Part shown: in pieces, positions 14,017 through 58,580 of the stretch
Layout of the letters: each line of letters starts with the position of its first letter
How positions within the stretch are numbered: position 1 is the first letter of the stretch
NCBI GenBank assembly: GCA_018821365.1
Contig: JAHJML010000138.1
Coordinates: 1,744 to 65,743, forward strand
Source: Actinomycetota bacterium
Lineage (GTDB): Bacteria > Actinomycetota > Acidimicrobiia > Spongiisociales > UBA11373
Length of the DNA: 64,000 nucleotides
Direction: 5' to 3'
Program-made: the position numbers and the translations under genes
Notes under the pieces: generated by a model
Database searches by the model: none
The model's input: the letters and a program-made list of their open reading frames with translations, nothing else
Told to the model about the DNA's origin: nothing

Positions 14017-14058
14017 CGGCCGGCCAATTCTGCTGCTCCGTGGCGAGAGGGGCAATCC

Positions 14059-25244: not shown

Positions 25245-25303
25245 GGGCCGGAGTCCCCCGGCCGGCGGTTCCGGCGGTCCCGATCCGGCTTCCCGGAGAC
25301 CCC

Positions 25304-25317
25304 CTATCATTCGATAG
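25304..25317. promoter_or_regulatory. short palindrome (ctatc-attc-gatag) 12 bp upstream of the tetR start; candidate TetR operator
   Basis: Inverted repeat CTATC(N4)GATAG immediately before the GAGGAG RBS and ATG of the TetR gene at 25329. Confidence 0.3.
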
Positions 25318-25328
25318 AGGAGTTCCCG

Positions 25329-25979
25329 ATGCCGCCATCACCCGTCCCCGACGAACCGCTCTCGACGCGCCAGAGGATCCTGCAGGCCGCCGCCGCCCAG
25401 TTCGCCCGCCGCGGTTTCCACGGCACTTCGACCCGCGACATCGCCGCCGAGGTCGGGATCCGGCAACCATCGCTGTTCCACCACTTCACGACCAAACAGG
25501 CGATGCTGGCCGAACTCCTCGACCGCGATCTGCAGCCGGCACTCGAGCGGATCCGGCGCCATCGGGGGGCCAATCCGGCGGTTCGCCTGTACGCCTATCT
25601 GGTCGAGGACGTCGCCGCCCTGGTCGCCAGTCCCTTCGACGTGCGGGGCCTCTACAACGACGCCGTGCTGGAGGACCCGTCCCTGATCGAACAGCGCCGG
25701 GCACGGGAAGCGCTGCATGCCGAGATGAGGAGTCTGGTCACCGACGGGATCGCCGCAGGCGAGTTCCGCGCCTGCGACCCCGAGGTCGCCCGCCAGATGA
25801 TGACCGGGATGCTGCTCGACACGATCTGGGCGGCGGGCGTCCCCGCCGACCTGGACGTCGGGGGCCGTGCCAAGGAGGTGGCCGACTTCGTGCTTCGCGG
25901 GCTCCTCAGCGATCGTGGCCACGTCGCCCTGGTGGAACGGGAGGCGATGGCGCTGGCAACCCGTCCCGGCCGGGGCTGA
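25329..25979 (+). CDS. TetR family transcriptional regulator
   Basis: 216 aa with an N-terminal TetR HTH (RQRILQAAAAQFARRGFHGTSTRDIAAEVGIRQPSLFHHF). Confidence 0.85.
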   Translation: MPPSPVPDEPLSTRQRILQAAAAQFARRGFHGTSTRDIAAEVGIRQPSLFHHFTTKQAMLAELLDRDLQPALERIRRHRGANPAVRLYAYLVEDVAALVASPFDVRGLYNDAVLEDPSLIEQRRAREALHAEMRSLVTDGIAAGEFRACDPEVARQMMTGMLLDTIWAAGVPADLDVGGRAKEVADFVLRGLLSDRGHVALVEREAMALATRPGRG

Positions 25980-25998: not shown

Positions 25999-27231
25999 TC
26001 AGGCGGCGAAGACCTTCCTCATTGCCGCCAGCATGACGTCGATCTGCTCGTCGGTGATCACCAGCGGCGGGCACATCGACAGGTGGACCGGGGCGATCGG
26101 CCTCACGATGACGCCCTCCCCCAGGAGCGCGTCCCGGGCTTCCACCACGCTGCGCTCGGCCGGGAGCGAGATCCCCCACACCGCCCCTTCACCCCGCACA
26201 TCGGTGAGCAGGCCGTCCGATTGCATGGCCCGGAGACCGGCCTCCAGGCGGCCCCCGATCACCCGGGCGCGATCGAGCAGTCCCTCCCGCTCCTGGATCT
26301 CGATGGCCTTGAGGGCGGCCGCGCACGCCAACGGGTGCCCTGAGTAGGTGAAGCCGGTCCTCAGCAGGAACCCCTCGTTGGCTTCGAGTGCGGCTCGCAC
26401 CGCCGGCCCGACGATCACACCCGACAACGGGACGTACCCACTGGTCACCGCCTTCGCAAAGACGATCATGTCGGGCGTCACCCCGTAGAACTGACTGCCG
26501 AACCAGGTCCCGAGCCGCCCGAAACCGGTGATGACCTCGTCGTGGATCAGGTAGGCGCCGTAGGCATCGCACAGGTCCGCCAGATGCTCGAGATAGCCGG
26601 GCGGCGGCGGCCAGACGCCACCGGCACCCTGCAGCGGTTCGGTGATGATGGCGGCGATCTCGTCACCGTGGTCGGCGAACACCTGCTTCATGGCCTCTTC
26701 GTCATCGGCGCTCACGTTGATGACGCCGGGGACCAGCGATCCCCAGCCTTCCCGGTTGGGAGCGATGCCCTGCACCGAGGTCCCCCCGTAGTTGGTGCCG
26801 TGGTACCCGCGCTCGCGGCTGACGATGATCTGCCGCTCCGGGTGGCCCGCCTCGCGCTGGGCGATCCGCGCCAACTTCATGGCGGTGTCCACCGCCTCGG
26901 AACCGGAGGACCCCATGAACACCCTGGCATCCGCCAAGGGGGACAGTTCGACGATCCTGGCCGCCGCCTCCTCGGCCCTCGGGGTGGTGTACGGGTCGAA
27001 CGTGTGATAGGCCGCCAGGGTCCTCGCCTGCTCGGCGATCGCATCGGCCATCTCCTCCCGACCGTGGCCGATGTTGACGTACCACAGCGAAGCCATGCCG
27101 TCGATGTACTCCTTACCGGTGTCGTCCCAGACCACCGCCCCCTTTCCTCCGACGATCGAGAGGAAGTCCTGTTTGCGGGGCGGGGTGAATGGGTGCAAGA
27201 AGGGGCTGAGCATGGTGCCTCCCAGTGGCAC
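25999..27231 (-). CDS. class III (omega-type) PLP-dependent aminotransferase
   Basis: 410 aa (...SGSEAVDTAMKLAR..., DEVITGFGRLG, FAKAVTSGYVPL with the PLP lysine). Substrate not assignable. Confidence 0.85.
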   Translation of the reverse strand: MPLGGTMLSPFLHPFTPPRKQDFLSIVGGKGAVVWDDTGKEYIDGMASLWYVNIGHGREEMADAIAEQARTLAAYHTFDPYTTPRAEEAAARIVELSPLADARVFMGSSGSEAVDTAMKLARIAQREAGHPERQIIVSRERGYHGTNYGGTSVQGIAPNREGWGSLVPGVINVSADDEEAMKQVFADHGDEIAAIITEPLQGAGGVWPPPPGYLEHLADLCDAYGAYLIHDEVITGFGRLGTWFGSQFYGVTPDMIVFAKAVTSGYVPLSGVIVGPAVRAALEANEGFLLRTGFTYSGHPLACAAALKAIEIQEREGLLDRARVIGGRLEAGLRAMQSDGLLTDVRGEGAVWGISLPAERSVVEARDALLGEGVIVRPIAPVHLSMCPPLVITDEQIDVMLAAMRKVFAA

Positions 27232-27301
27232 TACCTATCGGTTGATAGGTAGTGTAGGTACGGGCATTGAGGCCCTGACGCTACACGGATGGAGGACCAG
27301 G

Positions 27302-28642
27302 GTGGCCAGACGTCGGGTGATCATCATCGGGGCCGCCGGCCGCGACTTCCACAACTTCAACACCCGGTACCGGGACGACCCGACCACCGATGTGGTGGCC
27401 TTCACCGCCGCCCAGATCCCCGACATCGACGGTCGGCGCTACCCCGCAGAACTGGCCGGGCCGCTCTACCCCGACGGCATCCCGATCTTCTCGCAGGACG
27501 AGCTCCCGGCGCTCATCACCGAACTCGCCGTGAACGAGTGCGCCTTCTCCTACAGCGACGTCCCCTACGCCTATGTGATGGGCCTGTCGGCGATCGTCCA
27601 GGCGGCCGGGGCCGGCTTCCTGCTGCTCGGGCCCGCTGAGACCCAGATCGAGAGCACCAAGCCGGTCATCTCGGTCTGCGCGGTGCGCACCGGCAGCGGC
27701 AAGAGCCAGACCTCCCGCAAGGTCGTGGAGACCCTCATGGCGGGGGACATCCGGGTGGTGGCGATCCGGCATCCCATGCCCTACGGCGACCTGGTCAAGC
27801 AGAGGGTGCAACGGTTCGCAGCCATCGAAGACCTCGCTCTCCACCAGTGCACCATCGAGGAGATGGAGGAGTACGAGCCGCACATCGTGCGCGGCAACGT
27901 CATCTACGCCGGGGTCGACTACGAGGCGATCATCCGGGCCGCCGAGAACGACCCCGGCGGCTGCGACGTGATCGTATGGGACGGTGGCAACAACGACTTC
28001 CCGTTCTACCAACCGGACCTCAGCATCACCGTCGTCGACCCGCATCGTCCCGGCCACGAACTCTCCTACTACCCGGGCGAAGTCAACCTGCGAACGGCCG
28101 ACGTCATCGTGATCAACAAGATGGACTCGGCACCTGCAGCGGGCATCGCCCAGGTGAAGGCCAACATTGCCGCCGCCAACCCAGCCGCCATCGTCGTCGA
28201 GGCCGATTCGGCACTGACGGTGGCCGATCCGTCGATCATCAAGGGCAAGCGGGTGCTCGTCATCGAAGACGGGCCGACCCTCACCCACGGCGAGATGAAG
28301 ATCGGGGCGGGCGCCGTCGCCGCCGAGCGGGCCGGGGCCGCCGAGTTGGTCGACCCGCGGCCCTATTTGGTGGGCAGGCTCAAGGAGACCTTCGCGTCCT
28401 ACCCGGGCATCGGGACGATCCTCCCGGCCATGGGCTACGGAGAGCAGCAACTGAAGGATCTCGAGGCCACCATCAACGCCACCGACTGCGACGCCGTGGT
28501 GATCGGGACCCCGATCGACCTGGCCCGGATCGTCCACATCGACAAGCCGGCCACCCGGGTCACCTACGACCTGGCCGAGCGGGGCGAGCCGAACCTGGCC
28601 GGGATTCTCGGCGACTTCGTGTCGCAACACGGACTGGGCTAA
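27302..28642 (+). CDS. COG2403-type P-loop protein (cyclic 2,3-diphosphoglycerate synthetase-like)
   Basis: GTG start proposed (MARRRVIIIGAAGRDFHNF). It has an N-terminal Rossmann-like domain and a central P-loop VISVCAVRTGSGKSQTS. Its overall length and organisation resemble the archaeal cpgS/COG2403 family. The assignment is tentative. Confidence 0.45.
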   Translation: MARRRVIIIGAAGRDFHNFNTRYRDDPTTDVVAFTAAQIPDIDGRRYPAELAGPLYPDGIPIFSQDELPALITELAVNECAFSYSDVPYAYVMGLSAIVQAAGAGFLLLGPAETQIESTKPVISVCAVRTGSGKSQTSRKVVETLMAGDIRVVAIRHPMPYGDLVKQRVQRFAAIEDLALHQCTIEEMEEYEPHIVRGNVIYAGVDYEAIIRAAENDPGGCDVIVWDGGNNDFPFYQPDLSITVVDPHRPGHELSYYPGEVNLRTADVIVINKMDSAPAAGIAQVKANIAAANPAAIVVEADSALTVADPSIIKGKRVLVIEDGPTLTHGEMKIGAGAVAAERAGAAELVDPRPYLVGRLKETFASYPGIGTILPAMGYGEQQLKDLEATINATDCDAVVIGTPIDLARIVHIDKPATRVTYDLAERGEPNLAGILGDFVSQHGLG

Positions 28643-29978: not shown

Positions 29979-31058
29979 ATGCCGAACATCGCCCTGATCC
30001 CCGGCGACGGAGTCGGGCCCGAGATCACCGACGAGGCCGTCCGCATCCTCGAGGCCGCCGCCCGGGTCTACGGCTTCCCGGTCGAGACCGAGATCTTCGA
30101 TTGGAGCTGCGACCGCTACCTGGCGCAGGGCGAGATGATGCCGGCGGACGCCCTCGAGACCCTGGCCGGTTTCGATGCGATCTTCCTGGGCTGCATCGGC
30201 GACGCCAACAAGGTCCCCGACCACGTCTCGCTGGAGATGCTGCTGGGGATCCGGGTGGGGTTCGACCAGTACGTCAACCTGCGGCCGATCCGCCTCTACC
30301 CCGGAGTCCCGACCCCGATCAGGACCGCCACCCCCGAGAGTGTCGACTTCGTGGTGATCCGCGAGAACACCGAAGGCGAGTACAGCCGTCAGGGCGGCTT
30401 CTTCCACCCCGACGCCGACGACGGATTCGCCATCCAGACCGGCATCTTCACCCGCAAGGGTTGCGAACGGGTGATCCGCTACGCCTTCGACCTGGCCGAG
30501 GAGCGCAAGGCCGCCGGGTACCAGGGCCGGGTGACCAACTGCACCAAGAGCAACGCCCTCAACTACTCGATGGTGTTCTGGGACAAGATCTACGCCGAGG
30601 TGGCCGAGGGCCATCCCGGCATCCAGCGCGACATGGCCCTGGTGGATGCGCTGACCATGTGGTTCGTCAAGAACCCCGAGTGGTTCGACGTGGTGGTCGC
30701 CTCCAACCTGTTCGGAGACATCATCACCGACCTGGGGGCGATGCTGCAGGGCGGCATGGGCTTGGCGGCCGGCGGCAACATCGACCCGGAGCGCCGCTAC
30801 CCGTCGATGTTCGAGCCGATCCACGGTTCGGCGCCCAAGTACACCGGCCAGCGGCGGGTCAACCCGATCGCCACCATCGAGGCGGTCCGGATGATGCTCG
30901 ACCACCTCGGCCAACCCGAGGCGGCCGCCGCCGTCGGGCGGGCCGTCGCCGGCACACTGGAGGCGGGCGAGATCCGCACCAGGGACATCGGGGGAACCAG
31001 CACGACCGACCAGGTGGGCGCAGAGGTGGCCCGCCGCATCACGGAGGAGCAGTCATGA
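29979..31058 (+). CDS. isocitrate/isopropylmalate dehydrogenase family enzyme, tartrate dehydrogenase/decarboxylase-like
   Basis: 359 aa ([48 protein letters not shown]), typical of beta-decarboxylating dehydrogenases and of TDH-like length. An AGGGA RBS lies upstream. Confidence 0.8.
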
Positions 31059-32074
31059 GCAAGATCAAGGTAGGCGTCGCCGGATACGGGGTGATCGGCC
31101 AGCGTCTCGCCGACGGGGTGGCACTGCAGGAGGACATGGAACTGGTCGGCGTCGCCGATGTCGCCCCCACCCTCCCGGTACGGGCCCTCGCCGAGAAGGG
31201 GATGCCGTACAAGATGTTCACGGCGGCTCCCGGTGCCGAGGCCGCCCTCACCGCCGCCGGCATCCCGGTCAGCGGCACCTTCGACGACCTGCTGGGCGAG
31301 GTCGACATCATGCTCGACGCCGCCCCGGGCGGGATCGGCGCCAAGAACAAGGAGAAGTACGTCGCCGCCGGAGTCAAGGGGGTGTTCCAGGGAGGTGAGG
31401 CCGGGTCGGTGGCCGACGTCTTCTTCCACGGCTACGCCAACTACGCCAGAGGGGTCGGCAAGGACTACCTCAAGCTGACCTCGTGCAACACCACGGGACT
31501 GATCCGGGCCGTCGACGCGCTCGACAAGGCGGTCGGGATCCACAAGGTGGCGATCACGATCATCCGCAGGATCGCCGACCCCGGCGACACCCACCGCGGC
31601 ATCGTCGACTCGCTGATGATGGAGGCGATCCCCAACCACCAGGCCGTCGACCTCATGGAGATCATGCCGCACGTCGACGCCACCGGGTTGCTGGTGCACA
31701 CCCCCATCACCCACGGCCACATCATCACCATCGTGGCGACCCCCAAGAAGGGCATCACCGACGACGAGGCGATCGACGTGTTCCGGGCCCACCCCCGGGT
31801 CCGCTCGGTCAGGATCGCCGACGGCTTCACCACCAACACGTCGCTGTTCAACTACGCCCGCTTCCTGGGCAAGCCGCGCGGTGACATGTACGAGATCGGC
31901 CTCTTCGAGGAGACGGTCGGCCACAGTGGGGACGACCTGATGTTCGCCATCAACATCCCCCAGGAGTCGGTGACCATCCCCGAGACCATCGACGCCGTCC
32001 GGGCGGCGATCCCGATGCAAGAGGACCAGGCCGAGGCGGTCGGGCTCACCAACCGGTACCTCGGCATGGCGTAG
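31055..32074 (+). CDS. type II (archaeal-type) glyceraldehyde-3-phosphate dehydrogenase
   Basis: 339 aa ([19 protein letters not shown] ... IMLDAAPGGIGAKNKEKY ... SCNTTGLIRAV ... IRRIADPGD) with block-by-block similarity to archaeal GAPDH, including the catalytic SCNTTGL cysteine motif. ATGA overlap with the upstream dehydrogenase. Confidence 0.88.
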   Translation: MSKIKVGVAGYGVIGQRLADGVALQEDMELVGVADVAPTLPVRALAEKGMPYKMFTAAPGAEAALTAAGIPVSGTFDDLLGEVDIMLDAAPGGIGAKNKEKYVAAGVKGVFQGGEAGSVADVFFHGYANYARGVGKDYLKLTSCNTTGLIRAVDALDKAVGIHKVAITIIRRIADPGDTHRGIVDSLMMEAIPNHQAVDLMEIMPHVDATGLLVHTPITHGHIITIVATPKKGITDDEAIDVFRAHPRVRSVRIADGFTTNTSLFNYARFLGKPRGDMYEIGLFEETVGHSGDDLMFAINIPQESVTIPETIDAVRAAIPMQEDQAEAVGLTNRYLGMA

Positions 32075-32076
32075 CG

Positions 32077-33303
32077 ATGTCGATCCGCTCCATCGACGAT
32101 CTCGAGGTCGGCGGCAAGCGGGTGCTGCTGCGGGTCGACATCAACTCACCGATCGACCCGTCCACCGGCCGGATCGCCGACGAGAACCGCATCGAGCAGA
32201 GCCTCCCCACGATTCGCGATCTGGCGGATCGGGGGGCCCGCCTGGTGATCATCTGCCATCAGGGCGACACCCTCGACTACCACAACCTGGTGGGGGTGGG
32301 CCAACACGCCGAGCGGCTCGCCGCCAAACTGGGACGGCCGGTCGGCTTCATCGACGACGTGGCCGGTCCGGCCGCCCGGGACCGGATCACCGCACTCGGC
32401 GACGGCGACATCCTGCTGCTCGACAACCTTCGCTACCTGACCGAAGAGGTGTCGACGTTCGAGCGCGACGTCAAGCTGAGCGTCGAGCAGATGGCCCACA
32501 CCTACCTGGTCCGCAGCCTGGCGCCGCTGTTCGACTTCTACGTCAACGACGCCTTTGCCGCCGCCCACCGGGCGTCGCCCTCGATGATCGGCTTCCAGCC
32601 GCTCCTCCCCTCGGCGGCGGGGCGGCTGCTGGAAGCCGAGGTCACTGCCATCACGAGCCTGATCGAGGACCCCCGCCGGCCTGCGGTCTTCCTGCTGGGG
32701 GGCCTCAAGGTGTCCGACGGCTTCTCGATGATGGGCAGGGTGCTCGCCGACGGCCTCGCCGACCGGGTGCTGACCTCCGGGGTCCTCGGGGAGATCTTCC
32801 TGACGGCGAGCGGAGTGGATCTCGGCGAGCCGACCACCGCCTTCATCGCCTCGCGCGACTTGACCCGGTATGTGGCGGTGGCGGCCGGCCTGCTGGCCGA
32901 TCACCCCGATCGCATCGCCCTGCCACTCGACGTGGCGGTGGTGGCCGACGGGGTGCGCCGGGAGCTCCCGGTGGCCGCCCTCCCGGCCGGCCGATTGATC
33001 GTGGACATCGGCGCCGCGACGATCTCCGCCTTCGAAGCCGAGATCGCCGCGGCGGGCACGGTGTTCGTGAACGGACCCGCCGGGGCGTACGAACAGGAGG
33101 GCGCCGACCTGGGGACGCGGCGGCTGTGGGCGGCGGTGGCCGCCACCGATGCCACCACACTCATCGGCGGAGGCGATACCGTGGCCAGCGCCCGCAAGTT
33201 CGTGGACACTGCGAAGATCGATCATGTGAGCACCGGCGGCGGAGCGCTGATCCGCTTCGTCAGCGGACAGCCCCTCCCGCTGCTGGAGGCCTTCGGAGTC
33301 TGA
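32077..33303 (+). CDS. pgk: phosphoglycerate kinase, archaeal-type
   Basis: 408 aa starting MSIRSIDDLEVGGKRVLLRVDINSPIDPSTGRIADENRI, with the archaeal PGK signature RVDINSPI. A C-terminal GGGDTV nucleotide domain is present. 2 nt gap after the GAPDH gene. Confidence 0.85.
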   Translation: MSIRSIDDLEVGGKRVLLRVDINSPIDPSTGRIADENRIEQSLPTIRDLADRGARLVIICHQGDTLDYHNLVGVGQHAERLAAKLGRPVGFIDDVAGPAARDRITALGDGDILLLDNLRYLTEEVSTFERDVKLSVEQMAHTYLVRSLAPLFDFYVNDAFAAAHRASPSMIGFQPLLPSAAGRLLEAEVTAITSLIEDPRRPAVFLLGGLKVSDGFSMMGRVLADGLADRVLTSGVLGEIFLTASGVDLGEPTTAFIASRDLTRYVAVAAGLLADHPDRIALPLDVAVVADGVRRELPVAALPAGRLIVDIGAATISAFEAEIAAAGTVFVNGPAGAYEQEGADLGTRRLWAAVAATDATTLIGGGDTVASARKFVDTAKIDHVSTGGGALIRFVSGQPLPLLEAFGV

Positions 33304-33319
33304 GGAAGGAGCGCGCCGC

Positions 33320-35161
33320 GTGACCATCGAGACCAGCGTGGAGGTCGTGGCCCCCACCGGGTTTTCGGTGAGCCGGTACTTCGTCGACCTGGCAGCCTCC
33401 GAGGTCCGCTGGGAACGGGCCGGCTGCGAGGACTGCGAGGACGCCCTCGGTGGGATCGCCAGAGCCACCAAGCTGCTGGGGCCGGTGCGGGTCGACGACC
33501 CGTATGCTCCCGATTCCCCCATCGTCATGAACCTCGGCCTGCTGAGCGGGACCAGGGTGATGACCGGGCTGCGCACCTTCTTCCACGGCTACTCGCCCCT
33601 CAAGACCTCCCTGTCCGGCAAGCCCGGCCTGATGTGGTCGGCGGGCAGCGGGCACTTCGGGACCAAGCTGCGGGGCCTCGGCATCGACGAGGTGGTCTTC
33701 ACGGGCAGGGCCACCCGGCCCACCCTGCTCAGGCTGAGCCCGGCCGCCGACCCGGAGGGAGCGGGGGGGCCGGCCCGCTTCGAGTTCCTCCCGGCGGCCG
33801 ACCTGGCCGGGCGGACGGTCAACGACCGCATCCAGGACCTGCACCGCCGCTATCCCGCGGCCCACTTCGCCGTCATCGGACCCGCCGGTGAGCACCCCGC
33901 ATCGGTGCGGTACGCCGCCATCGCCCTGTCGACCGACAACCAACTGAAGAGCGGCGACGCCAAGCCCCGCTACTGCGGCCGGGGCGGCTTCGGCGGGGTG
34001 CTCGGGTCCAAGAACCTGTTCGCCATCGCCGCCGATGGGCCCAACCCCGACGTGTCGAGCCGGGGACTGCGGGAGATCAACAAGGAGATCAACCTGGGCC
34101 AGGGCAGCGCCCGCTACCGGGACCTCCCCGACGACCGGGGAGGCACCTGGCGCACCATGAAGATGATGCAGGAGGCGGCCTCGCTCCCCGAGTACAACTT
34201 CGCCCCTACCGGCACCGACGTCTCCGTCCCGCTGCTGCGTCCCAGCGTCGAGGCGGGCCCCTTCGTCGTCAAGGCCGAGGGCTGCTACCTGTGCGGCATC
34301 AAGTGCCACAAGAACGTCTACGACCAGGAGCCCGGCGGGGAGGCGGGCCGCTTCCGGGCCAAGGTCGATTTCGAGCCGATCACCCTGCTGTCGTCCAACC
34401 TCGGCATCTTCGACCCCGATGACGGCCTCGACCTGATCGAGATGAGCGACGAACTGGGGATGGACTCGATCTCGCTGGGGGTGACGCTGGGGTACGCCAT
34501 GGAGTACAACCACCGCCACCCGGCGGACCCGATCGCCGACGGCATCTCCTACGGGGATGGTGCCGCCGTCAGGAAGGCCGTCGCCGCCGTCGCCGCCGGC
34601 GCATGCGCCGAACTGGGCCAGGGCGTCAAACGCTTGGCGGATGCCACCGGAGAGCCCGGCTACGCCATGCACTCCAAGGGCGTCGAGTATCCGGCCTACC
34701 AGCCGCAGACCAATCCGGGCTACCCCTGGGCGCTGGCCGGCGGGCACATGTCGATGCGGACCTTCTTCCTGATGGTGATCGAACGGGAGACCGGCCTCGA
34801 CTACTGGGTGGACGCCATCACCAACCGGGGACTGCTGTACCTGATGGACGACATCACCGGGCTCTGCAAGTTCACCAACGCAAGCGCCGATCTCGAAGCC
34901 GAGGCGATCAGGATCGCCGCCGGCCTCGACATCGATGCCGACGGACTGCTCGACGTCACCCGCCGCACCTTCCTGCGCGGCTACCTCGCCGAACGGGCCC
35001 AGGGTTTCGAGCCTGCCGACTACTCGCTCCCGGCCGAAGCCCACCAACCGGCGGCGGGGATGACCATGCCGCACTTCAGCACCCCGGAGTTCTTCGCGGC
35101 GCTGCGCGACCGGGTCAACGCCGCCTTCGACGAGCGGGCCGAGGCCGCCGGGCTGCTCTGA
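33320..35161 (+). CDS. aldehyde:ferredoxin oxidoreductase family protein (tungsto/molybdo-pterin, divergent; GAPOR/FOR-like candidate)
   Basis: 613 aa with AOR N-terminal blocks (ATKLLGPVRVDDPYAPDSPIVMNLGLLSGT...KSPLTG-like LKTSLSGKPG...SGHFGTKLRGLGIDEVVF). It has the [4Fe-4S] ligand motif C-x2-C-x3-C (CYLCGIKC) and the pterin-binding DELGMDSIS. Confidence 0.75.
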   Translation: MTIETSVEVVAPTGFSVSRYFVDLAASEVRWERAGCEDCEDALGGIARATKLLGPVRVDDPYAPDSPIVMNLGLLSGTRVMTGLRTFFHGYSPLKTSLSGKPGLMWSAGSGHFGTKLRGLGIDEVVFTGRATRPTLLRLSPAADPEGAGGPARFEFLPAADLAGRTVNDRIQDLHRRYPAAHFAVIGPAGEHPASVRYAAIALSTDNQLKSGDAKPRYCGRGGFGGVLGSKNLFAIAADGPNPDVSSRGLREINKEINLGQGSARYRDLPDDRGGTWRTMKMMQEAASLPEYNFAPTGTDVSVPLLRPSVEAGPFVVKAEGCYLCGIKCHKNVYDQEPGGEAGRFRAKVDFEPITLLSSNLGIFDPDDGLDLIEMSDELGMDSISLGVTLGYAMEYNHRHPADPIADGISYGDGAAVRKAVAAVAAGACAELGQGVKRLADATGEPGYAMHSKGVEYPAYQPQTNPGYPWALAGGHMSMRTFFLMVIERETGLDYWVDAITNRGLLYLMDDITGLCKFTNASADLEAEAIRIAAGLDIDADGLLDVTRRTFLRGYLAERAQGFEPADYSLPAEAHQPAAGMTMPHFSTPEFFAALRDRVNAAFDERAEAAGLL

Positions 35162-35170
35162 TCCGGGGCG

Positions 35171-36460
35171 TCAATCGATCCCGGCGATGGCCGCCGCGAT
35201 GATCTCACCGGCCCGATCGACCTCGGCAGCGGTCACCGTCAGCGGCGGAGCGATCCTGAGGACGTTCCCGTAGAGGCCGCCCTTCCCGATCAGCAGCGAC
35301 CTCGCCTTGCACGCCTCCGACAACCGGGCGGCCCGTGGCGCCGAGGGCGACAGCGTCCCCGGTTCGACCGTCTCGATCGCCTGCATCAAGCCCTTGCCCC
35401 GCACCTCGGCGATCCACTCGACGCCGGCGGCGGCCTCCTCGAGGTGGCCTCTGAGCCGGCGGCCCATCGCCAGGGCATTGTGCTGGAGGTCGTGCTCGTC
35501 GAGATACCGCAGGGTGGCGATGGCGGCCGCACACGACAGCGGGTTGCCCCCGAAGGTGGAGATCGAGTTGGCGGGCAGCGAGTCGATGATCTCGGCCCGC
35601 CCCACCACGCCGCCCAGGGCGACGCCGTTGCCCACCCCCTTGGCGAATGTGAGCAGGTCCGGAGTGACGCCGTGGGCCTGGTAGCCCCAGTAGTTCTCAC
35701 CGGTCCGTCCCCACCCGGTCTGCACCTCGTCGGAGACGAAGAGGATGCCGTGGTCGGCGAGGATCTTCTGGAAGGCGCCGAGCAGTCCATCCGGCGGGGT
35801 GGCAAAGCCGCCGACCCCCTGGATCGGCTCTGCGATGAAGCAGGCGACATCGCCCGAGGTCATCATGTCGATGACCTGCTCGAGGTCGGCGACCGAGGCC
35901 TCGATGTAGGCGTCGTCGTCGAGTCCCCGAAACGGCGTCCGCAGCGGGTAGCCGCCGTGGACGAAGTTGACGCTCAACCCGCTGACGCTGGTCGGCGACC
36001 AGGATCGATGCGAGGTGATGGCGATGGCGGTGAAGGAACGCCCGTGGTAGCTGTTGCGCAGCGCCAGCACCTGATTCGATCGCCGGTAGGTGGTCGCCAG
36101 CAGCAGGGCGGCGTCGTTGGCCTCGGTCCCCGAGGGGGTGAAGAAGACCTTGGCATCGGGGATGCCCGAGCGCGCGACGATCATCTCGGCCAACTCGATC
36201 ATCGGCTCGGAGAGGTACAGCGTCGAACTGTGGAGCAAGCGGGCGGCCTGCTCCCCGATGGCCCGGGTGATCTCGGGGACGTTGTGGCCGATCATCGTGG
36301 TGAGGATCCCCCCGAAGAAGTCCAGGTACTCGTTGCCCTCGACATCCCACACCGTGCGGCCCTCGCCGGCGGCGATGGCGATCGGTTCCTCGTAGTAGAC
36401 CGCCAGCCACGACGGCGCCACCTTCCGGTGCCGTTCCCGGAGTTCCCGATTCGTCGTCAT
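35171..36460 (-). CDS. class III PLP-dependent aminotransferase
   Basis: Start at MTTNRELRERH, with a GGAGG RBS upstream. It has FTPSGTEANDAAL, DEVQTGWGRTG and FAKGVGNG (PLP Lys). 4-aminobutyrate/omega-amino acid aminotransferase-like. Confidence 0.85.
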   Translation of the reverse strand: MTTNRELRERHRKVAPSWLAVYYEEPIAIAAGEGRTVWDVEGNEYLDFFGGILTTMIGHNVPEITRAIGEQAARLLHSSTLYLSEPMIELAEMIVARSGIPDAKVFFTPSGTEANDAALLLATTYRRSNQVLALRNSYHGRSFTAIAITSHRSWSPTSVSGLSVNFVHGGYPLRTPFRGLDDDAYIEASVADLEQVIDMMTSGDVACFIAEPIQGVGGFATPPDGLLGAFQKILADHGILFVSDEVQTGWGRTGENYWGYQAHGVTPDLLTFAKGVGNGVALGGVVGRAEIIDSLPANSISTFGGNPLSCAAAIATLRYLDEHDLQHNALAMGRRLRGHLEEAAAGVEWIAEVRGKGLMQAIETVEPGTLSPSAPRAARLSEACKARSLLIGKGGLYGNVLRIAPPLTVTAAEVDRAGEIIAAAIAGID

Positions 36461-36479
36461 CGTTCCTCCCAACGCATGG

Positions 36480-38450
36480 TCACCGCTCGTCCGTGATCGG
36501 GCCCGACCCTTCCTGGTCGTCGTCCATGACGAAGCCCATCCTCCGCAGGTGGGCGCGGACCTCCGCATCGGCCAGGATCTCGAAGAGCGCCCGCACCGCA
36601 GGGCGCTCCCGCCGGTCGTCGCGCACCAGCAGGTCGTAGCGCTCGTCCTGCACGAAGCGGAACTCCAGGCCCGCCCGGGTGGCGATGGTGTCGAGGGTCA
36701 TCCCCCAATCCGCCCTGCGCTGCTCGACGGCGGCCGCCACCCCGTGATGGGTCCTCACCTGGTGCAGGTAGCCGTCGGGGCGAGCGTCCCCCAGCAGGCG
36801 GTCGATGAGGACCCGGGTGCCGCTGCCGACGTTCCGGTTCACCATCCGCAGGCCGCCCGGCACTGCGCCTGCCAGGAAGGCGGCGGCATCCTCGCCCAAC
36901 CCGGCGTGCTTGGAGCGGAAGACGATGCCCTGTCGCCGCCGGTAGCCGGGTAGCAGCGACGCCCCCTCCGGCACGAAAGCCCGGTTGTACTCGCCGGTGG
37001 CCGGGTCCATCAGGTGGATCCCGGCGACGTCGCCCTCCCCCCTCCGCAATGCCGCCACCCCGCCCATCGAGCCCACCCAGACCGCCTTGACCCGGAACCC
37101 TCGCGAGGCGACCAGTCCCAGCAGGTGGTCGAATCCCTCGCAGTTGCTCCCGATCGCCGCCAGGTCGGCGGGCCGGACGTCGGGGTTGATCGGCCGTACG
37201 ACGACGGCCGCTCCCTCCTCCAGGTACTCGATGGCGGCCGGGATGCGGATGAACCCGTCCGCCCTGCCGAAGGCGGTGACGCTGCCCGAACCTGCCCCGA
37301 GGGGATAGGCGGCGGGGCCCTGCTGCCCCTCGACCAGGTCGACGAGCACGTAGTGGGTGCGGCCCGGCACCGAGTCGATCCGCATGGGGGTGATCGCGGC
37401 GATCTCGCCGGCCAACCCGTTGCCGAAGCCGGACAGCCGGCGCAGCAGGGGAGCGACGAACTCGTGGAAGGTGAAGACGGCAGAGGTGGGGAACCCCGGC
37501 AGGACCACCACCGGCCTCCCCGCCAGCACCGCCAGCAGGATCGGCTTGCCGGGTTTGAGCGCCACCCCGTGCACCAGCACCTCCGAGGCCGGGAGGCGGG
37601 AGGCCAACCGCTGCACCACCACGGCGTTGACGTCGCCGTCGCCCTTGGAAGTGCCGCCGGACAGCAGCACAGCATCGGCGGGATGGTCGCCGCCGATCAG
37701 AGCCGTGATCGCCTCCTCGACTCGCTGCTCGTCGTCGGGGACGATCCCGGCGGGGACCCCATCGCACCCGAGTTCGGCCACCGCATCCAGGAGGATCCGC
37801 TGGTTGGAGTCGTAGACCTCCCCGGCCGCGATAGGGCCGCCGGGGGGGACGATCTCGTCTCCCGTCGAGAGCACCGCCACCCGCGGCCTGCGGACCACCT
37901 CGATCTCTCCGACCCCAACCGCCGCCAGCACCCCGGTCTCCCGTGAGGTGAGGCGGGTGCCCCGCCGCACCACGACGTCGCCCCGGCCGATGTCCGATCC
38001 CGCAAAGGTGAGGTTCCCTCCGGGCGCCACCGGGCGGGACACCTCCACCCGTTTCCCGGCGAGATGGGTGTCCTCCACCATGACCACTGCGTCGGCCCCC
38101 CGGGGGACGACGGCGCCGGTGGCGATCGGCACCGCCCGTCCCGGTCCCACCTCGAACCCGGGGGCGGGGCGGTCGCCGGCGGCCAGCGGCGGCCCGAGCA
38201 GCGTGAGCACGACCGGGGCAAGCTCCTCGGCCCCGGCGGTGTCGGTGGCGCGCACTGCAAAGCCGTCCATGTTGCTGCGATCGAACCCCGGGACGTCCAC
38301 GGCGGCGGCGACGTCGGCAGCCAGCACCCGGCCCAGGGCGGCATCGAGGGCGACGGTCTCGACGGCGGGCGCCAGATGAGCACACGCCTCCTCGAAGCGC
38401 CGCCGGGCCTCCGCCTCGTCCACCACGTCGAGGAACTGGCGCTGTCTCAT
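36480..38450 (-). CDS. molybdopterin molybdo-/tungsto-transferase MoeA fused to a C-terminal periplasmic-binding-protein-like (COG1910 molybdate/tungstate-binding) domain
   Basis: The N-terminal ~400 aa is MoeA-like (FDRSNMDGFAV ... GGTSKGDGD ... VLPGFPTSAV). The C-terminal ~230 aa is a PBP type 2-like domain. ATGA overlap with the upstream MoaD-MoeA gene. Confidence 0.8.
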   Translation of the reverse strand: MRQRQFLDVVDEAEARRRFEEACAHLAPAVETVALDAALGRVLAADVAAAVDVPGFDRSNMDGFAVRATDTAGAEELAPVVLTLLGPPLAAGDRPAPGFEVGPGRAVPIATGAVVPRGADAVVMVEDTHLAGKRVEVSRPVAPGGNLTFAGSDIGRGDVVVRRGTRLTSRETGVLAAVGVGEIEVVRRPRVAVLSTGDEIVPPGGPIAAGEVYDSNQRILLDAVAELGCDGVPAGIVPDDEQRVEEAITALIGGDHPADAVLLSGGTSKGDGDVNAVVVQRLASRLPASEVLVHGVALKPGKPILLAVLAGRPVVVLPGFPTSAVFTFHEFVAPLLRRLSGFGNGLAGEIAAITPMRIDSVPGRTHYVLVDLVEGQQGPAAYPLGAGSGSVTAFGRADGFIRIPAAIEYLEEGAAVVVRPINPDVRPADLAAIGSNCEGFDHLLGLVASRGFRVKAVWVGSMGGVAALRRGEGDVAGIHLMDPATGEYNRAFVPEGASLLPGYRRRQGIVFRSKHAGLGEDAAAFLAGAVPGGLRMVNRNVGSGTRVLIDRLLGDARPDGYLHQVRTHHGVAAAVEQRRADWGMTLDTIATRAGLEFRFVQDERYDLLVRDDRRERPAVRALFEILADAEVRAHLRRMGFVMDDDQEGSGPITDER

Positions 38451-39952
38451 CCGGCTCCCCCGTACAGCCCGACCTCCACCTCGGCGCCCTCGGCGAACCC
38501 CTCTGAGCCCGCCGGAACGATGACGAACCCGTCGGCCCTGGTCACCGAGGACAGCACCGACGCCCCCCCGATCGCCAGTGGTTCCACCGCGCCGTCGCGG
38601 ATCAGGACCCGGGCGTAGTCGGTGCGCCCGATCCGGGAGACGAGCCGCTTGGACAACGGCAGCCGCAGTCTGCGATGGGGCCAGGCAGGGCTGCGGCCCC
38701 CCAACACCCGGATGACCGGTCCTGCGAAGAACTCATAGGCGACCAGGCAGGAGACCGGGTTGCCCGGGAGCAGCAGCACCGGCGCCCCCCCGATCCTTCC
38801 GATCCCGGTCGGAGACGACGGCCGCATCGCCACCCCGTGGATCTGCAGTTCACCCAACTCGGCCACCAGCCGCGGGGTGTGATCCTCCTGCCCCACCGAC
38901 ACCGCCCCTGCGGTGACGATCACATCGGCACCGGGGCGCTGCAGTGCCTCCCGCATCGGGCCGGCGCCATCAGGGAGTCGGACGACCTCGGCGACCACGC
39001 CGCCGTCGCGCCCGACGAGCGCCGCCAGCATCGGGGAGTTGCTGTCGACGATCCTGGTCCCGACCGGAGCCGCCCCGGGGGCCAACAACTCGTCGCCCGA
39101 CACGATCACCCGCACCAGGGGGCGGCGGTGGACCGGCACCGTCGCCCGCCCGATGGCGGCCAGCAGGCCGAGGTCCTGGGGCAGCAACATCCGCCCGGCA
39201 CCCAGTACCTCAGTACCGGCGACCACGTCCTCCCCGATCCTCCCCACGTTGCGGCCGGGGGCGACCGGGGCCTTCACCATCACCAGGCCGCCGTCCTCTG
39301 CGGCGTCCTCGGCCCGTAGCACGGCATCGGCGCCCTCCGGCAGCGGGGCCCCGGTCATGATCCGCACCGCGGCGCCCGATGCGACCTCCGGGACCTCGGA
39401 GTCGCCCGGCATCGAGGCCCCGGCCACCGCCAGGGCGATCGGGGCGTAGGGAGTGGCGCCGAATGTGTCATCGGCGACCACCGCGTAGCCGTCCATGGTC
39501 GATCTGCGGAAGGAAGGCAGGTCGACGGTGCTGATGATCGCCCCGCCGCTCACCCGGTTGGCGGCATCCGCCAGGGCCACCTCTTCGGCGGCCAGGGGAG
39601 CCACCCCGGAGAGGGCGGCCGCCAGCGCATCTTCGACCGTCGCCCGCTCCCGGAACCCGATCATCCGCACGTCGTCGTGGCCGCCCCCGGCGATGCTCAC
39701 CAGCACGGTCACCAGGTCGGTGGCGGCCACCGCGGTCGATGCGACATCCTCTCGGTCGATCCGGCGCTCCCCGACGAACACGGCGAGGTGGGGGCGCAGC
39801 ATGCCTCGCTCGTCCACCAGGCGCTCGGTCAGATCGGGGTGGGCGGCGCAGGCCGCCGCGACGACCTCGGCGACGGTCTCCCCCTCCACCACGATCCGAT
39901 CGTGCTCGGCGGCGTAGCGCCGGAGTGCCGAGGGGATGCGGACGGTGACCAC
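38447..39952 (-). CDS. MoaD-like ubiquitin-fold domain (ending in Gly-Gly) fused in-frame to a second MoeA paralogue
   Basis: The first ~90 aa (MVTVRIPSALRRYAAE...LAVFVGERRI...DLVTVLVSIAGG) has MoaD/ThiS length and pattern, with a C-terminal GG. It is followed without a stop by a MoeA domain (RRSTMDGYAV ... AGAVSVGQED ... LLPGNPVSCLV). Confidence 0.7.
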   Translation of the reverse strand: MVTVRIPSALRRYAAEHDRIVVEGETVAEVVAAACAAHPDLTERLVDERGMLRPHLAVFVGERRIDREDVASTAVAATDLVTVLVSIAGGGHDDVRMIGFRERATVEDALAAALSGVAPLAAEEVALADAANRVSGGAIISTVDLPSFRRSTMDGYAVVADDTFGATPYAPIALAVAGASMPGDSEVPEVASGAAVRIMTGAPLPEGADAVLRAEDAAEDGGLVMVKAPVAPGRNVGRIGEDVVAGTEVLGAGRMLLPQDLGLLAAIGRATVPVHRRPLVRVIVSGDELLAPGAAPVGTRIVDSNSPMLAALVGRDGGVVAEVVRLPDGAGPMREALQRPGADVIVTAGAVSVGQEDHTPRLVAELGELQIHGVAMRPSSPTGIGRIGGAPVLLLPGNPVSCLVAYEFFAGPVIRVLGGRSPAWPHRRLRLPLSKRLVSRIGRTDYARVLIRDGAVEPLAIGGASVLSSVTRADGFVIVPAGSEGFAEGAEVEVGLYGGAG

Positions 39953-40032
39953 GAGTCTCTCCCTAGCGGCCGGGGCGGCGATCGATCACCGCGCGCCGGC
40001 CCCGGCTGCCGCAACGACCGTACCCGGCACGA

Positions 40033-41994
40033 TCACACCCCGATCTCATCGGCGATCCACGCCAGCCCCAATCCCTCCAGGGTCTCCCGGGTGGGGCTGC
40101 CGGTGTCGAGGTCCCACCCGGCCATGCGGTGGTACTCGTCGAGGGCCGCCGCCAACTCGGCCTCGTCGATCGACACCCCGTCGCTCATCCCGCCCTGGAG
40201 GGGCTCGTCGAAGAGCCGGCGCGGCAGCGTGTCGCTCTCCCGGGTCAGGCCTTCCCGGGCGTTGAAGGCCCGCAGCATGTTGAGGCGCCGCGCCCCGATC
40301 TCCTGGAGGCCGTCCACAGTGGTCTGGACACCGGTCACCGCCGTCACCACCCCGGCCAACTCCTCCATGCCCATCAGCTCCCAGGCGGGGCCGTACACGA
40401 ACTGACAGACGTTGACGGTGTCCATCGCCGAGTAGGCGTACTGGGTCCGCAGGGCGAACTCCACCTTCTGTCGATTCAGCACCATCGGATCCTGCGGCTC
40501 GGTGAGCCCGAGGCTCGCCATCCGCCTGCCGTACTTGTCGGGGCTGGTTTCGATGGTCTCCGGCTCGTACCCCGGGTCGTGCTCGCTGGATTGGTGGTCG
40601 GCGCCGAAGGGGTTGACCGCATAGACCAGTGCCAGGGACCGTTTCACGTGCGGCATGTGGGCGGGCAGTTCGGTGCCCTTCACCGTCATCGCGTAGGCGC
40701 CGGCGCCGTTGCCGATGGATGCCGCCGCCCGGGCCGATCCTTCGGCGAGCACGTCCCCAAAGCCCTCTCGCTCCAGGGTGGCCTCCAGCATCCGGATCAT
40801 GGCCGGGGCGTCACCCCAGGCCAGCTCGATCCCCCCGGTGTCCTTCGCCGTGATCACACCGCGCTCGAAGCACTCGATGGCAAAGGCCATCGTTGCGCCG
40901 GCGGCGATGGTGTCCACTCCGTACTCGTTGCAGAGTTGGTTGGCGTAGGAGACGGCGCCCAGGTCGTCGATGTCGCAATACGATCCGAACACCGAGGTCG
41001 TCTCGTACTCGGGGCCGCCCGACGCCGGGTCGATCGGGCGCCCCTCCCACTCGGATTCGACCACCCGCTTGCAGCGGATGGCGCACGAGAAGCAGGTGTC
41101 CCGGCCGGTCTTCATCTGGGTGCCCTCGGCGGCCCCCCGCAGGAACTCGTCGAACAATCGGGGGCCCGAGATGGCGGCAGCCCGCGCCTCGGGCATGGCG
41201 CCGCTGGTCCAGTTCCGGGTGGGGAGACCCCCGACGGCGCTCTGACTCTCCAGGATGTCGATGGTCCCGTACTGGGCGAGGCCGACGATGTCCTCGTCCT
41301 CCCTGACCCCGACCAGCGAGGCCTGCATGATGGCGCGGAGGCCCTCGGGATCGGCCAGGTCGAGCTTCTTCTTGCCGCCCCGCACCACAATCGCCTTGAG
41401 GTTCTTGCTCCCCATCACGGCGCCCATCCCGGTGCGGCCGTGGGCCCGGTTCGCCATGTTCATGATGGCGGCGAAGCGCACCTGCTTCTCACCGGCCGGC
41501 CCGATCTGGGCGATCTGGACCCGGGTGTCGTCGAGTTCCTCCTGCAGCATCCGGTCGACCCGGCGGGTGCGCTTGCCCCACAGATGGGCGGCCAGTCGCA
41601 GCTCGGCCTCCCCTTGATGGATCCACAGGTAGACCGGCTCCGGCGAGGCGCCCCGGATCACGACGGCGTCGAACCCGGCGAACTTGAGCTCGGCGGGCCA
41701 GAACCCGCCCGCCTGGCTGTCGCCGGCCCCACCGGTGAGCGGCGACTTGGCAACGGCGGTGCAGCGGCTCTGTCCGGCGATGGCGGCCCCGGTCACGCCC
41801 GACAGCGCCAGGGTCAGGGTGTTCTCCGGTCCCAGCGGGTCCGCCCCCGCCGGGGTGTGCTTGAACAGGTAGTAGAGGCCCAGCGCACTCCCTCCCACGT
41901 AGGTGCGGTAGAACTCCTCCGAGGGCTCTTCCACGGCGATCTGGTGGGTGGTCAAATCGACGTGGAGTATCTTGCCGGCGTATCCGTAGAGCAT
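40033..41994 (-). CDS. tungsten/molybdenum-containing aldehyde:ferredoxin oxidoreductase (AOR)
   Basis: Start at MLYGYAGKILHVDLTT (AOR N-terminal consensus); an alternative upstream ATG lies at 42024. It has KSPLTGGAGDSQAGGFW, the [4Fe-4S] C-x2-C-x3-C motif (CFSCAIRC) and the pterin-binding CNEYGVDTIAAG, and is canonical in length. Confidence 0.9.
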   Translation of the reverse strand: MLYGYAGKILHVDLTTHQIAVEEPSEEFYRTYVGGSALGLYYLFKHTPAGADPLGPENTLTLALSGVTGAAIAGQSRCTAVAKSPLTGGAGDSQAGGFWPAELKFAGFDAVVIRGASPEPVYLWIHQGEAELRLAAHLWGKRTRRVDRMLQEELDDTRVQIAQIGPAGEKQVRFAAIMNMANRAHGRTGMGAVMGSKNLKAIVVRGGKKKLDLADPEGLRAIMQASLVGVREDEDIVGLAQYGTIDILESQSAVGGLPTRNWTSGAMPEARAAAISGPRLFDEFLRGAAEGTQMKTGRDTCFSCAIRCKRVVESEWEGRPIDPASGGPEYETTSVFGSYCDIDDLGAVSYANQLCNEYGVDTIAAGATMAFAIECFERGVITAKDTGGIELAWGDAPAMIRMLEATLEREGFGDVLAEGSARAAASIGNGAGAYAMTVKGTELPAHMPHVKRSLALVYAVNPFGADHQSSEHDPGYEPETIETSPDKYGRRMASLGLTEPQDPMVLNRQKVEFALRTQYAYSAMDTVNVCQFVYGPAWELMGMEELAGVVTAVTGVQTTVDGLQEIGARRLNMLRAFNAREGLTRESDTLPRRLFDEPLQGGMSDGVSIDEAELAAALDEYHRMAGWDLDTGSPTRETLEGLGLAWIADEIGV

Positions 41995-42102
41995 GCCCAA
42001 CCCCCGTTGCCTATTGCCCCGCATCCTATCGGCCGGGCCGGCGACCGCTCCCCTCCGGCGGGTTCGGTTTGGAAAGGACTTCGCCTCCGAGCCAACGAAT
42101 CG

Positions 42103-55420: not shown

Positions 55421-55424
55421 CGGC

Positions 55425-55967: not shown

Positions 55968-55991
55968 GAGACCCTGGGATTGTACGGGTCC

Positions 55992-58540: not shown

Positions 58541-58580
58541 ATCGGCGGCCACTCGGCCGGCGCAATCCCGAGAGATAATC

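Follow-up and report, generated by a model that had tools for sequence, protein, structure and literature searches.

A probable bacterial orthologue of the arginine synthetase ArcE, beside a conserved candidate operator in an uncultured actinobacterial lineage

Arginine synthetase, also called ATP-forming arginine deiminase, was recognised only in 2024, when TK2200 of Thermococcus kodakarensis was identified as ArcE (Michimori, Yokooji and Atomi, PNAS 2024; PMC11032458). [quoted passage not shown] It was described as having a P-loop NTPase core like that of LpxK and low but detectable similarity to the cyclic 2,3-diphosphoglycerate (cDPG) synthetase, cDPGS, and the arcE, ornithine carbamoyltransferase (OTC) and carbamate kinase genes of T. 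kodakarensis are unlinked (PMC11032458). In cDPGS, Lys145 and Arg146 bind 2,3-DPG, and cDPG has been reported from hyperthermophilic methanogens only (PMC10690619). ArcE and cDPGS are sister families, and the reaction of ArcE, established by experiment, is a different one. Thousands of ArcE homologues are still labelled 'GTPase' or 'cyclic 2,3-diphosphoglycerate synthase' in databases.

Here we describe an arcE-type gene in a bacterial window, that is, the whole 64-kb stretch of DNA analysed, in which the GC content is 67–74%. The first-pass annotation had placed a protein of about 447 aa at this position, which was confirmed as an ORF of 446 aa with a GTG start at 27302, preceded by GGAGGA, and a TAA stop at 28640-28642. 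The start codon is supported because the homologues, which are 444-447 aa long, align from residue 1-4. The gene and its protein have the following features:

27302..28642, + strand: arcE-type gene, putative orthologue of arginine synthetase / ATP-forming arginine deiminase, 446 aa (ORF and start read from the sequence)
27291..27296, + strand: ribosome-binding site GGAGGA, 5 nt 5' of the GTG start (read directly)
27302..27646, + strand: predicted N-terminal Rossmann-like domain, approximately residues 1-115 (beta-alpha-beta in the AlphaFold2 model; partial Foldseek matches to NAD-binding domains)
27329-27358, + strand: GAAGRDFHNF loop of the N-terminal domain, invariant in the family (invariant alignment columns)
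27680..27715, + strand: Walker A / P-loop AVRTGSGKSQTS, with TGSGKSQT as residues 130-137
27977..28006, + strand: family signature WDGGNNDFPF (W226, D227, G228, G229, N230, N231 and D232 invariant; Walker-B-like Asp after a beta-strand)
28112..28126, + strand: INKMD, an NKxD-like motif inside a weak Pfam cobW match

An exact-match database look-up of the 446-aa protein returned no record, and a protein with 99% identity is encoded in a metagenome-assembled genome of Actinomycetota. NCBIfam and Pfam profiles gave no informative family for the protein, only a weak cobW tail, and a literature search on 'COG2403' found nothing. In public sources the homologues are named 'predicted GTPase' or, in many NCBI records, 'cyclic 2,3-diphosphoglycerate synthase', and the INKMD motif is probably one source of the 'GTPase' label. 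The cDPG interpretation of the first-pass annotation follows the other database label. The family is very highly conserved: an alignment of 71 sequences, window protein included, contains 58 invariant columns, and the window protein fits the family at every one of them. Used as a retrieval pattern, WDGGNNDFPF brought in 596 relatives.

The window protein aligns over 440 of its 446 residues, with 60% identity and 77% positives, to proteins of a Thermococcus cluster (P0435) and of P. furiosus (P0460), the comparison having been made with these Thermococcus and Pyrococcus orthologues and not with TK2200 itself. P. furiosus P0460 adjoins hypC and hypD, as does PF0547, which is given as arcE in Table S1 of PMC13260591, and this ties the comparison to the gene that those authors call arcE. 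Identity is 62% to an Aciduliprofundum protein and 54% to a protein of Dictyoglomus, a genus listed among those carrying arcE (PMC11032458). The window gene is very probably a bacterial ArcE orthologue, from Actinomycetota and probably from Acidimicrobiia, the most likely reaction being L-arginine + ADP + Pi <-> L-citrulline + NH3 + ATP. The kind of enzyme is known, and what its sequence adds here is a bacterial orthologue of a type commonly misnamed in databases. The 40% divergence from the Thermococcales ArcE proteins nevertheless leaves room for an altered substrate or preferred direction. To our knowledge no bacterial member of the ArcE family has been characterised biochemically, in line with the earlier remark that the family is poorly characterised in bacteria.

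In order to compare folds, we used an AlphaFold2 model built on the 71-homologue alignment (pLDDT 93.7, pTM 0.92), as the model from the single sequence was unusable (pLDDT 37.8). The modelled chain begins with a beta-alpha-beta Rossmann-like domain carrying the GAAGRD glycine-rich loop and continues into a P-loop core, and we show here a predicted P-loop kinase fold, like those of LpxK and cDPGS, preceded by a Rossmann-like domain at the N-terminus. Model, Foldseek matches and the position of TGSGKSQT bear out the N-terminal Rossmann-like domain and central Walker A proposed from the DNA alone. The best PDB matches of the model were the cDPGS structures 8ORU (E 7e-16, TM 0.49) and 8ORK (E 4e-15, TM 0.44), followed by LpxK (4EHX and 4EHY, E 3e-8), the same structural profile as that of TK2200. 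Pfam returned no DUF1611 match at E <= 0.01, and the DUF1611 / DgcN structures were matched at E ~4e-4 with TM 0.2-0.3; membership of that family, named as an alternative in the first-pass annotation, was rejected.

The cpgS-like organisation noted earlier holds as a distant kinship with the same two-domain architecture. Synthesis of a cDPG-like solute, or modification of phosphoglycerate by a kinase or ligase, had been proposed, in either case together with the neighbouring GAPDH and PGK; we consider this extremely improbable. The cDPGS structures top the list of structural matches and a family profile recovers cDPGS at E 1e-13 to 2e-9, but only about 110 residues are matched (about 113 at E 2e-9), the structural alignment gives 15% identity, against 60% to ArcE, and a single-sequence search misses the M. 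fervidus enzyme altogether (with phmmer neither 8ORK nor 8ORU appears at E <= 1, only 9SXB being found, E 0.003 over 107 residues). When the P-loops are aligned on GK[ST], K134 and S135 correspond to K149 and T150 of cDPGS, whereas the 2,3-DPG-binding K145 and R146 (PMC10690619) are replaced by T130 and G131, invariant in all 71 family members. The many homologues named 'cyclic 2,3-diphosphoglycerate synthase' by NCBI would favour such an activity, yet cDPG is known only from hyperthermophilic methanogens (PMC10690619) and the window is an actinobacterial sequence of 70% GC, with no 2-phosphoglycerate kinase among its annotated genes. The protein does resemble cpgS, and so does not belong to an unrelated P-loop family, the outcome that had been named as speaking against cDPG synthesis; its own family, ArcE, nevertheless has a different reaction.

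The genomic context gives little reason to connect the gene with glycolysis. On the GAPDH side of arcE the window contains:

31055-32074: type II (archaeal-type) GAPDH (NF003251, 376 bits; cutoff 185)
32077-33303: PGK, 3.4 kb from arcE
33320-35161: aldehyde:ferredoxin oxidoreductase (AFOR), 4.7 kb from arcE, with two MoeA genes nearby

An archaeal-type GAPDH gene and a PGK gene were indeed found nearby, at 2.4 and 3.4 kb, and not at the 1.3 kb first reported, which is the gap to the tartrate-dehydrogenase-like gene opening the GAPDH/PGK operon. An L-2-hydroxyglutarate oxidase gene, convergent with arcE on the opposite strand, lies between arcE and this operon. The GAPDH/PGK genes form a separate island, absent in L087, the closest syntenic relative (80% identity), and neither gene was adjacent in any of 85 related loci, in which neighbours were classified with tblastn; the proposed functional tie is not upheld. 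Recent horizontal transfer of arcE or of the GAPDH/PGK block was also considered and found unsupported, GC3 being uniform (0.89-0.95) in all eight genes. A simple GC3-based gene caller missed several real genes and served as a guide only.

The AFOR and MoeA genes might suggest another role, that of a G3E-type GTPase metallochaperone (CobW, HypB or UreG-like) serving tungsten/molybdenum aldehyde:ferredoxin oxidoreductases. The 'GTPase' label on many homologues, the weak sequence and structural kinship with HypB and UreG, and a Pfam cobW match over the NKxD-like region (22 bits, E 1e-4) agree with it, as does an AFOR gene directly after the gene in L001/L002. However, the cobW match is confined to positions 114-179 of the 180 in the profile, TIGR02475 reaches 16.5 bits where 332 are required, the sequence has no CxCC-type metal-binding motif, and the one characterised member is a metabolic enzyme that depends on ADP/ATP and retains only 8% relative activity with GDP (PMC11032458). 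Of the 85 loci just these 2 have an adjacent AFOR, while 17 have carbamate kinase, and we regard this role as very unlikely. A GAPOR identity for the AFOR gene of the window was also considered and rejected, the score being 14 bits and the cutoff 1300.

The neighbours that do recur include carbamate kinase and carbamoyltransferases. Carbamate kinase is adjacent in 17 of the 85 loci, in most of them as a same-strand gene 12-170 bp downstream; OTC is adjacent in nine loci, as is aspartate carbamoyltransferase (ATCase) with PyrI. Within the closest clade, arcE stands beside OTC in L003/4 and L089 and together with arginase in L001/2 and L088, and is also accompanied by urease genes and by a homologue of arginine:glycine amidinotransferase (AGAT; PDB 1JDW, E 2e-78). 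This AGAT-like gene lies directly upstream of arcE in four related lineages, in two of which OTC is directly downstream. In the window organism arcE is a single transcription unit. Searches with the relatives' sequences (tblastn for OTC), together with Pfam annotation of most larger ORFs (53972-64000 and a few gaps lying outside it), found no OTC or arginase in the 64 kb; the AGAT-like amidinotransferase is absent from the window, and no amino-acid-kinase domain, as in carbamate kinase, occurs among the Pfam-scanned ORFs. The local partners of the gene lie on its 5' side:

25303..25318, unstranded: operator-like site CCTATCATTCGATAGA, with 1 mismatch, 11 bp upstream of the TetR gene start
25329..25979, + strand: TetR-family regulator (called from sequence reading and position)
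25999..27231, - strand: class-III (omega-type) aminotransferase, divergent from arcE (Pfam Aminotran_3, 305 bits)
27229..27254, unstranded: candidate operator within the 70-bp divergent promoter region, a perfect palindrome CACTACCTATC-GGTT-GATAGGTAGTG with core CCTATC-N4-GATAGG

The aminotransferase is a conserved partner of arcE in the clade, with 76-77% identical orthologues in the corresponding place in L001-L004 and, in L087-L089, an Aminotran_3 gene there; in L087-L089 TetR_N genes likewise hold the place of the TetR gene. Six related lineages share the CCTATC-N4-GATAGG core at this spot, relatives also carry it upstream of their OTC, arginase and urease-cluster genes, and there is no exact match in 1.28 Mb of other loci. 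The one-mismatch copy before the TetR gene also occurs in L088 and L001, and the TetR protein is a candidate regulator acting on the palindrome. Because the promoter and operator are common to the aminotransferase, and the same operator stands before OTC, arginase and urease genes of relatives, we infer a role for the gene in a nitrogen/arginine catabolic regulon.

How an ArcE enzyme would work can be sketched as follows, the original description proposing no reaction intermediate (PMC11032458). K134 and S135 of the P-loop, together with Asp227, would bind the nucleotide (ATP or ADP) with Mg. During synthesis the gamma-phosphate would pass to citrulline's ureido oxygen, and ammonia would displace the phosphate from the resulting phospho-isourea intermediate; in the catabolic direction the same steps would run in reverse and make ATP. 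The gene shares the 70-bp divergent promoter and the conserved palindromic candidate operator with the omega-type aminotransferase, beside TetR. In a catabolic regulon arginine would be converted to citrulline and then ornithine, and ornithine or another amine then transaminated.

A more elaborate scheme, which we put forward as speculative and on balance unlikely, would place the ArcE of this Acidimicrobiia clade in a TetR-controlled CCTATC-N4-GATAGG regulon with the AGAT-like amidinotransferase, OTC, arginase, urease and the omega-aminotransferase, ornithine acting as a catalytic carrier. The amidinotransferase would shift the amidino group of a guanidino compound to ornithine, giving arginine, and ArcE with OTC would remove it with a gain of ATP and regenerate ornithine; reversed, the cycle could build guanidino compounds. 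The window organism would then retain a reduced regulon of TetR, aminotransferase and ArcE only. The same arrangement of genes allows for repurposing of the enzyme in the clade, for another guanidino/ureido substrate or for a mainly synthetic reaction (citrulline + NH3 + ATP -> arginine) regenerating the amidino donor of the amidinotransferase that adjoins the gene in relatives. With an amidinotransferase upstream in four lineages and OTC downstream in two, a loop from ornithine through citrulline to arginine would close without ArgG/ArgH, a setting in which biosynthetic use of ArcE has been raised (PMC11032458). We find repurposing distinctly unlikely, as the amidinotransferase and OTC are missing from the window, the 60% identity to the characterised lineage and the invariant residues argue for the same chemistry and substrate, and TK2200 accepts L-arginine only (PMC11032458).

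Assignment to ArcE alters what metabolism is predicted for an uncultured lineage of actinobacteria, as it would imply ATP-yielding arginine breakdown, or one-step synthesis of arginine from citrulline and ammonia, and not synthesis of a thermoprotectant. The conserved candidate operator and the clade-specific partners offer concrete, testable handles on how bacteria use ArcE.

Among the known systems, the DUF1611 / DgcN proteins (2G0T, 2OBN, 7XRJ) share a Rossmann-like N-terminal domain and a P-loop-like domain with the window protein, but match it poorly in structure and have a reported N-acetyltransferase activity. LpxK of Aquifex aeolicus (4EHX/4EHY) has the same P-loop kinase core (TM relative to the window protein 0.61-0.63), but identity is 12-13%, LpxK lacks the N-terminal Rossmann-like domain, and as a membrane-associated tetraacyldisaccharide 4'-kinase it acts on a lipid. 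cDPGS (CpgS of Methanothermus fervidus; 8ORK, 8ORU; PMC10690619) belongs to the same superfamily, with an N-terminal alpha/beta domain, an LpxK-like P-loop domain and the P-loop Lys and Ser/Thr that the window protein keeps; in both cDPGS and, presumably, ArcE, ATP activates an oxygen nucleophile and Pi is released. It differs in overall structure (global TM only 0.44-0.49), in its substrate-binding residues, in substrate and product and in taxonomic range. ArcA of the ADI pathway brings about the same net change, arginine into citrulline and ammonia, feeding OTC and carbamate kinase, but with an unrelated fold (guanidino-group-modifying superfamily) and by an irreversible hydrolysis that forms no ATP. 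Closest is TK2200 ArcE itself, to whose Thermococcus and Pyrococcus orthologues the window protein is similar over its full length, with equal length, the same motifs, a family-level association with carbamate kinase and carbamoyltransferases, and a common history of annotation as 'hypothetical' or 'putative GTPase'. In contrast to that hyperthermophilic archaeon, the host here is a bacterium, known from a high-GC Actinomycetota metagenome assembly, and locally its ArcE is partnered by a TetR regulator, an omega-aminotransferase and a clade-specific candidate operator.

The plus-strand open reading frame at 27302-28642 is a genuine gene, with a GTG start 5 nt past a GGAGGA ribosome-binding site, a TAA stop and a GC3 (0.91) similar to that of its neighbours; homologues of 444-447 aa align from their first residues, which confirms the start. 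The 446-aa product carries the expected Walker A motif TGSGKSQT at residues 130-137. An AlphaFold2 model from the single sequence was unusable (pLDDT 37.8); one built on a 71-homologue alignment was confident (pLDDT 93.7, pTM 0.92) and predicts the N-terminal Rossmann-like domain proposed earlier, a beta-alpha-beta unit followed by a P-loop core. The stop codon (TAA, 28640-28642) overlaps tail to tail with that of a convergent L-2-hydroxyglutarate oxidase gene (CTA, 28639-28641), leaving no space for an intergenic terminator at 28639-28642.

The protein belongs to a large, strikingly conserved family with homologues in the thousands (75-99% identity within Acidimicrobiia and other Actinomycetota, 50-65% across many bacterial and archaeal phyla), which databases name 'predicted GTPase' or 'cyclic 2,3-diphosphoglycerate synthase'. 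Arginine-related genes recur near close homologues, namely ornithine carbamoyltransferase (OTC), arginase and a 377-aa protein weakly like arginine deiminase, and pointed to the arginine synthetase ArcE (TK2200 of Thermococcus kodakarensis), discovered in 2024, which catalyses Arg + ADP + Pi <-> citrulline + NH3 + ATP (PMC11032458). ArcE homologues were formerly annotated as 'putative GTPase', the predicted ArcE structure best matches LpxK, and the family is weakly similar to cyclic 2,3-diphosphoglycerate synthetase (cDPGS) (PMC11032458). In place of TK2200 we compared Thermococcales orthologues, reached via Aciduliprofundum, and found 60% identity and 77% positives over 440 residues with both a Thermococcus cluster (P0435) and the P. 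furiosus homologue (P0460). As hypC and hypD adjoin P0460, its context is that of PF0547, a neighbour of PF0548 and PF0549 that a 2026 paper by the ArcE authors (PMC13260591, Table S1) lists as arcE, and the comparison gene is therefore the authors' own arcE. Identity to the homologue from Dictyoglomus, a genus named among those with arcE (PMC11032458), is 54%, and 58 columns are invariant in the 71-sequence family alignment, which includes the window protein. Longer family members (P0124, 766 aa; P0136, 651 aa; P0139, 655 aa; P0244, 806 aa) have the ArcE-like part at the C-terminus and would be fusions with an N-terminal partner.

From orthology-level similarity, fold, family-level gene association and a shared operator, we consider it very probable that the protein catalyses the ArcE reaction; the reaction and its properties are taken from the literature. 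Catalysis would pass through a phospho-isourea intermediate formed at citrulline's ureido oxygen; the role may be catabolic, supplying ornithine to the adjacent aminotransferase.

The first-pass annotation had likened the protein's organisation to that of cpgS and named as candidate functions the synthesis of a cDPG-like solute or a phosphoglycerate-modifying kinase or ligase. The resemblance holds at superfamily level: among solved structures the sole sequence relatives are true cDPG synthetases, weakly matched (a single-sequence search reached 9SXB at E 0.003 and did not reach M. fervidus 8ORK), the family profile matches cDPGS at E 1e-13 to 2e-9 over ~110 residues, and the best PDB match by structure is cDPGS (E 7e-16, 15% identity, TM 0.49), with the lipid A kinase LpxK next. 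It very probably does not extend to function. In cDPGS, K145 and R146 of the P-loop (GTGKRIGKT) hold 2,3-DPG in the complex structure (PMC10690619), whereas the window protein, with P-loops aligned on GK[ST], has T130 and G131 (RTGSGKS) at these positions, both invariant across its family. Moreover, cDPG has been reported from hyperthermophilic methanogens only (PMC10690619); the window is ~70% GC, and a protein 99% identical to this one is encoded in an Actinomycetota metagenome-assembled genome. Given the low identity, the replaced substrate residues and a host unlike known cDPG makers, a cDPGS-like function is extremely unlikely.

We surveyed the neighbourhood in 85 related loci (80 from species-representative genomes, with 61-74% identity, and 5 from metagenome contigs). 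Carbamate kinase lies beside the arcE homologue in 17 of the 85, mostly 12-170 bp downstream on the same strand; OTC does so in 9/85, aspartate carbamoyltransferase with its regulatory subunit (pyrB/pyrI) in 9/85, and GAPDH-II or PGK in 0/85. The pyrB/pyrI neighbours fit a 2026 report of the ArcE pathway as a source of carbamoyl phosphate for pyrimidine synthesis, and suggest that this role extends to bacteria. The order arcE, pyrB, pyrI occurs in Bacteroidales and related Bacteroidota; the pair follows directly (~76-125 bp) at loci L016, L028, L036, L041, L046, L050 and L053, and lies ~4.8 kb downstream at L006 and L010.

The type II GAPDH and PGK neighbours in the window are genuine (Pfam, NCBIfam), lying 2.4 kb and 3.4 kb from the gene and not the 1.3 kb first given. 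The arcE homologue forms a single transcription unit, divergent from a class-III aminotransferase gene across 70 bp, and a separate plus-strand operon from 29994 holds the tartrate-dehydrogenase-like, GAPDH-II, PGK and aldehyde:ferredoxin oxidoreductase (AFOR) genes. The closest syntenic relative, L087 (80% identity), has the same upstream order (UDP-glucose dehydrogenase, LytR, BirA, PccB, PccA, TetR, aminotransferase, ArcE) and the same downstream DAO, EamA and PBP genes; absent from it, by comparison with the window annotation, is everything between the tartrate-dehydrogenase-like gene and the second AFOR, both included. GAPDH and PGK therefore sit in a variable island and not in a conserved partnership with the arcE homologue, and the functional link once called plausible is unsupported, given this absence, the separate operon and the lack of adjacency in the survey.

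Contents of the ~12-kb island (29994-42024) missing from L087
Tartrate-dehydrogenase-like gene (TIGR02089 445 bits, just under the 470 cutoff)
Archaeal-type (type II) GAPDH, PGK, divergent AFOR (not GAPOR), second class-III aminotransferase
MoeA-PBP_like fusion, second MoeA, canonical AFOR

A G3E-like chaperone serving these AFOR and MoeA genes is very improbable; Pfam matches the protein to nothing beyond the tail end of the CobW/HypB/UreG domain (22 bits), and an NCBIfam scan gave no useful family. An archaeal-type GAPDH together with a PGK, beside tungsten/molybdenum aldehyde oxidoreductases in an actinobacterium, merits separate study. Elsewhere in the window, Pfam offers no match at E <= 1e-5 for two long ORFs of high GC3, 6710-8902 (-) (730 aa) and 11221-14055 (-) (944 aa).

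A perfect, AT-rich palindrome of 11+11 bp, built on the core CCTATC-N4-GATAGG, lies within the 70-bp divergent region. Six related lineages have this core, unchanged, at the corresponding position, and in these relatives it is also present upstream of OTC, arginase, an amidase/isochorismatase-urease cluster and a CoA transferase; in 1.28 Mb of 81 other loci, from other phyla, there are 0 exact copies and one with a single mismatch.

Palindrome sites in the window and in loci of the closest clade
Window: 27229-27254, 25303-25318
L001: 8746-8761, 3033-3048, 20474-20489
L003: 8774-8789, 11419-11434, 15448-15463
L087: 7901-7916
L088: 2510-2525, 4824-4839, 6765-6780, 10798-10813
L089: 2807-2822, 5462-5477

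The palindrome is the predicted mark of a clade-specific regulon. Copies with one mismatch precede the TetR gene by 11-13 bp in the window and in L088, and in L001 they fall in the divergent region ahead of that gene; this placement suggests autoregulation. The arcE homologue appears to belong to an autoregulated regulon of the TetR type for the catabolism of arginine and nitrogen, with TetR as candidate regulator. The putative shared operator independently supports a role related to arginine in this Acidimicrobiia clade.

Close relatives show three arrangements: TetR, aminotransferase, amidinotransferase, ArcE and OTC; the same with amidase and urease in place of OTC; and aminotransferase, amidinotransferase, ArcE and AFOR, with TetR ~4 kb further upstream. 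The amidinotransferase is the 377-aa protein, a homologue of L-arginine:glycine amidinotransferase (PDB 1JDW, E 2e-78) with no Pfam or NCBIfam assignment, and is missing from the 64-kb window.

Amidinotransferase homologues immediately upstream of arcE
L001: 8826-9959
L003: 8839-9978
L088: 6837-7976
L089: 2881-4020

In relatives with this gene, OTC is sometimes immediately downstream of arcE, and the pairing could form an ornithine-carrier cycle that builds or breaks down guanidino compounds. It is unlikely that the ArcE homologue has changed its substrate or direction in this clade.

The protein adds a bacterial member to an enzyme family defined only recently, whose Actinomycetota homologues were already mentioned in the ArcE paper (PMC11032458). 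Its assignment as ArcE mends a common database mis-naming and reveals no new kind of system; the sole parts that may lead somewhere new are the putative regulon specific to this clade and, in relatives, the partnership with the amidinotransferase.
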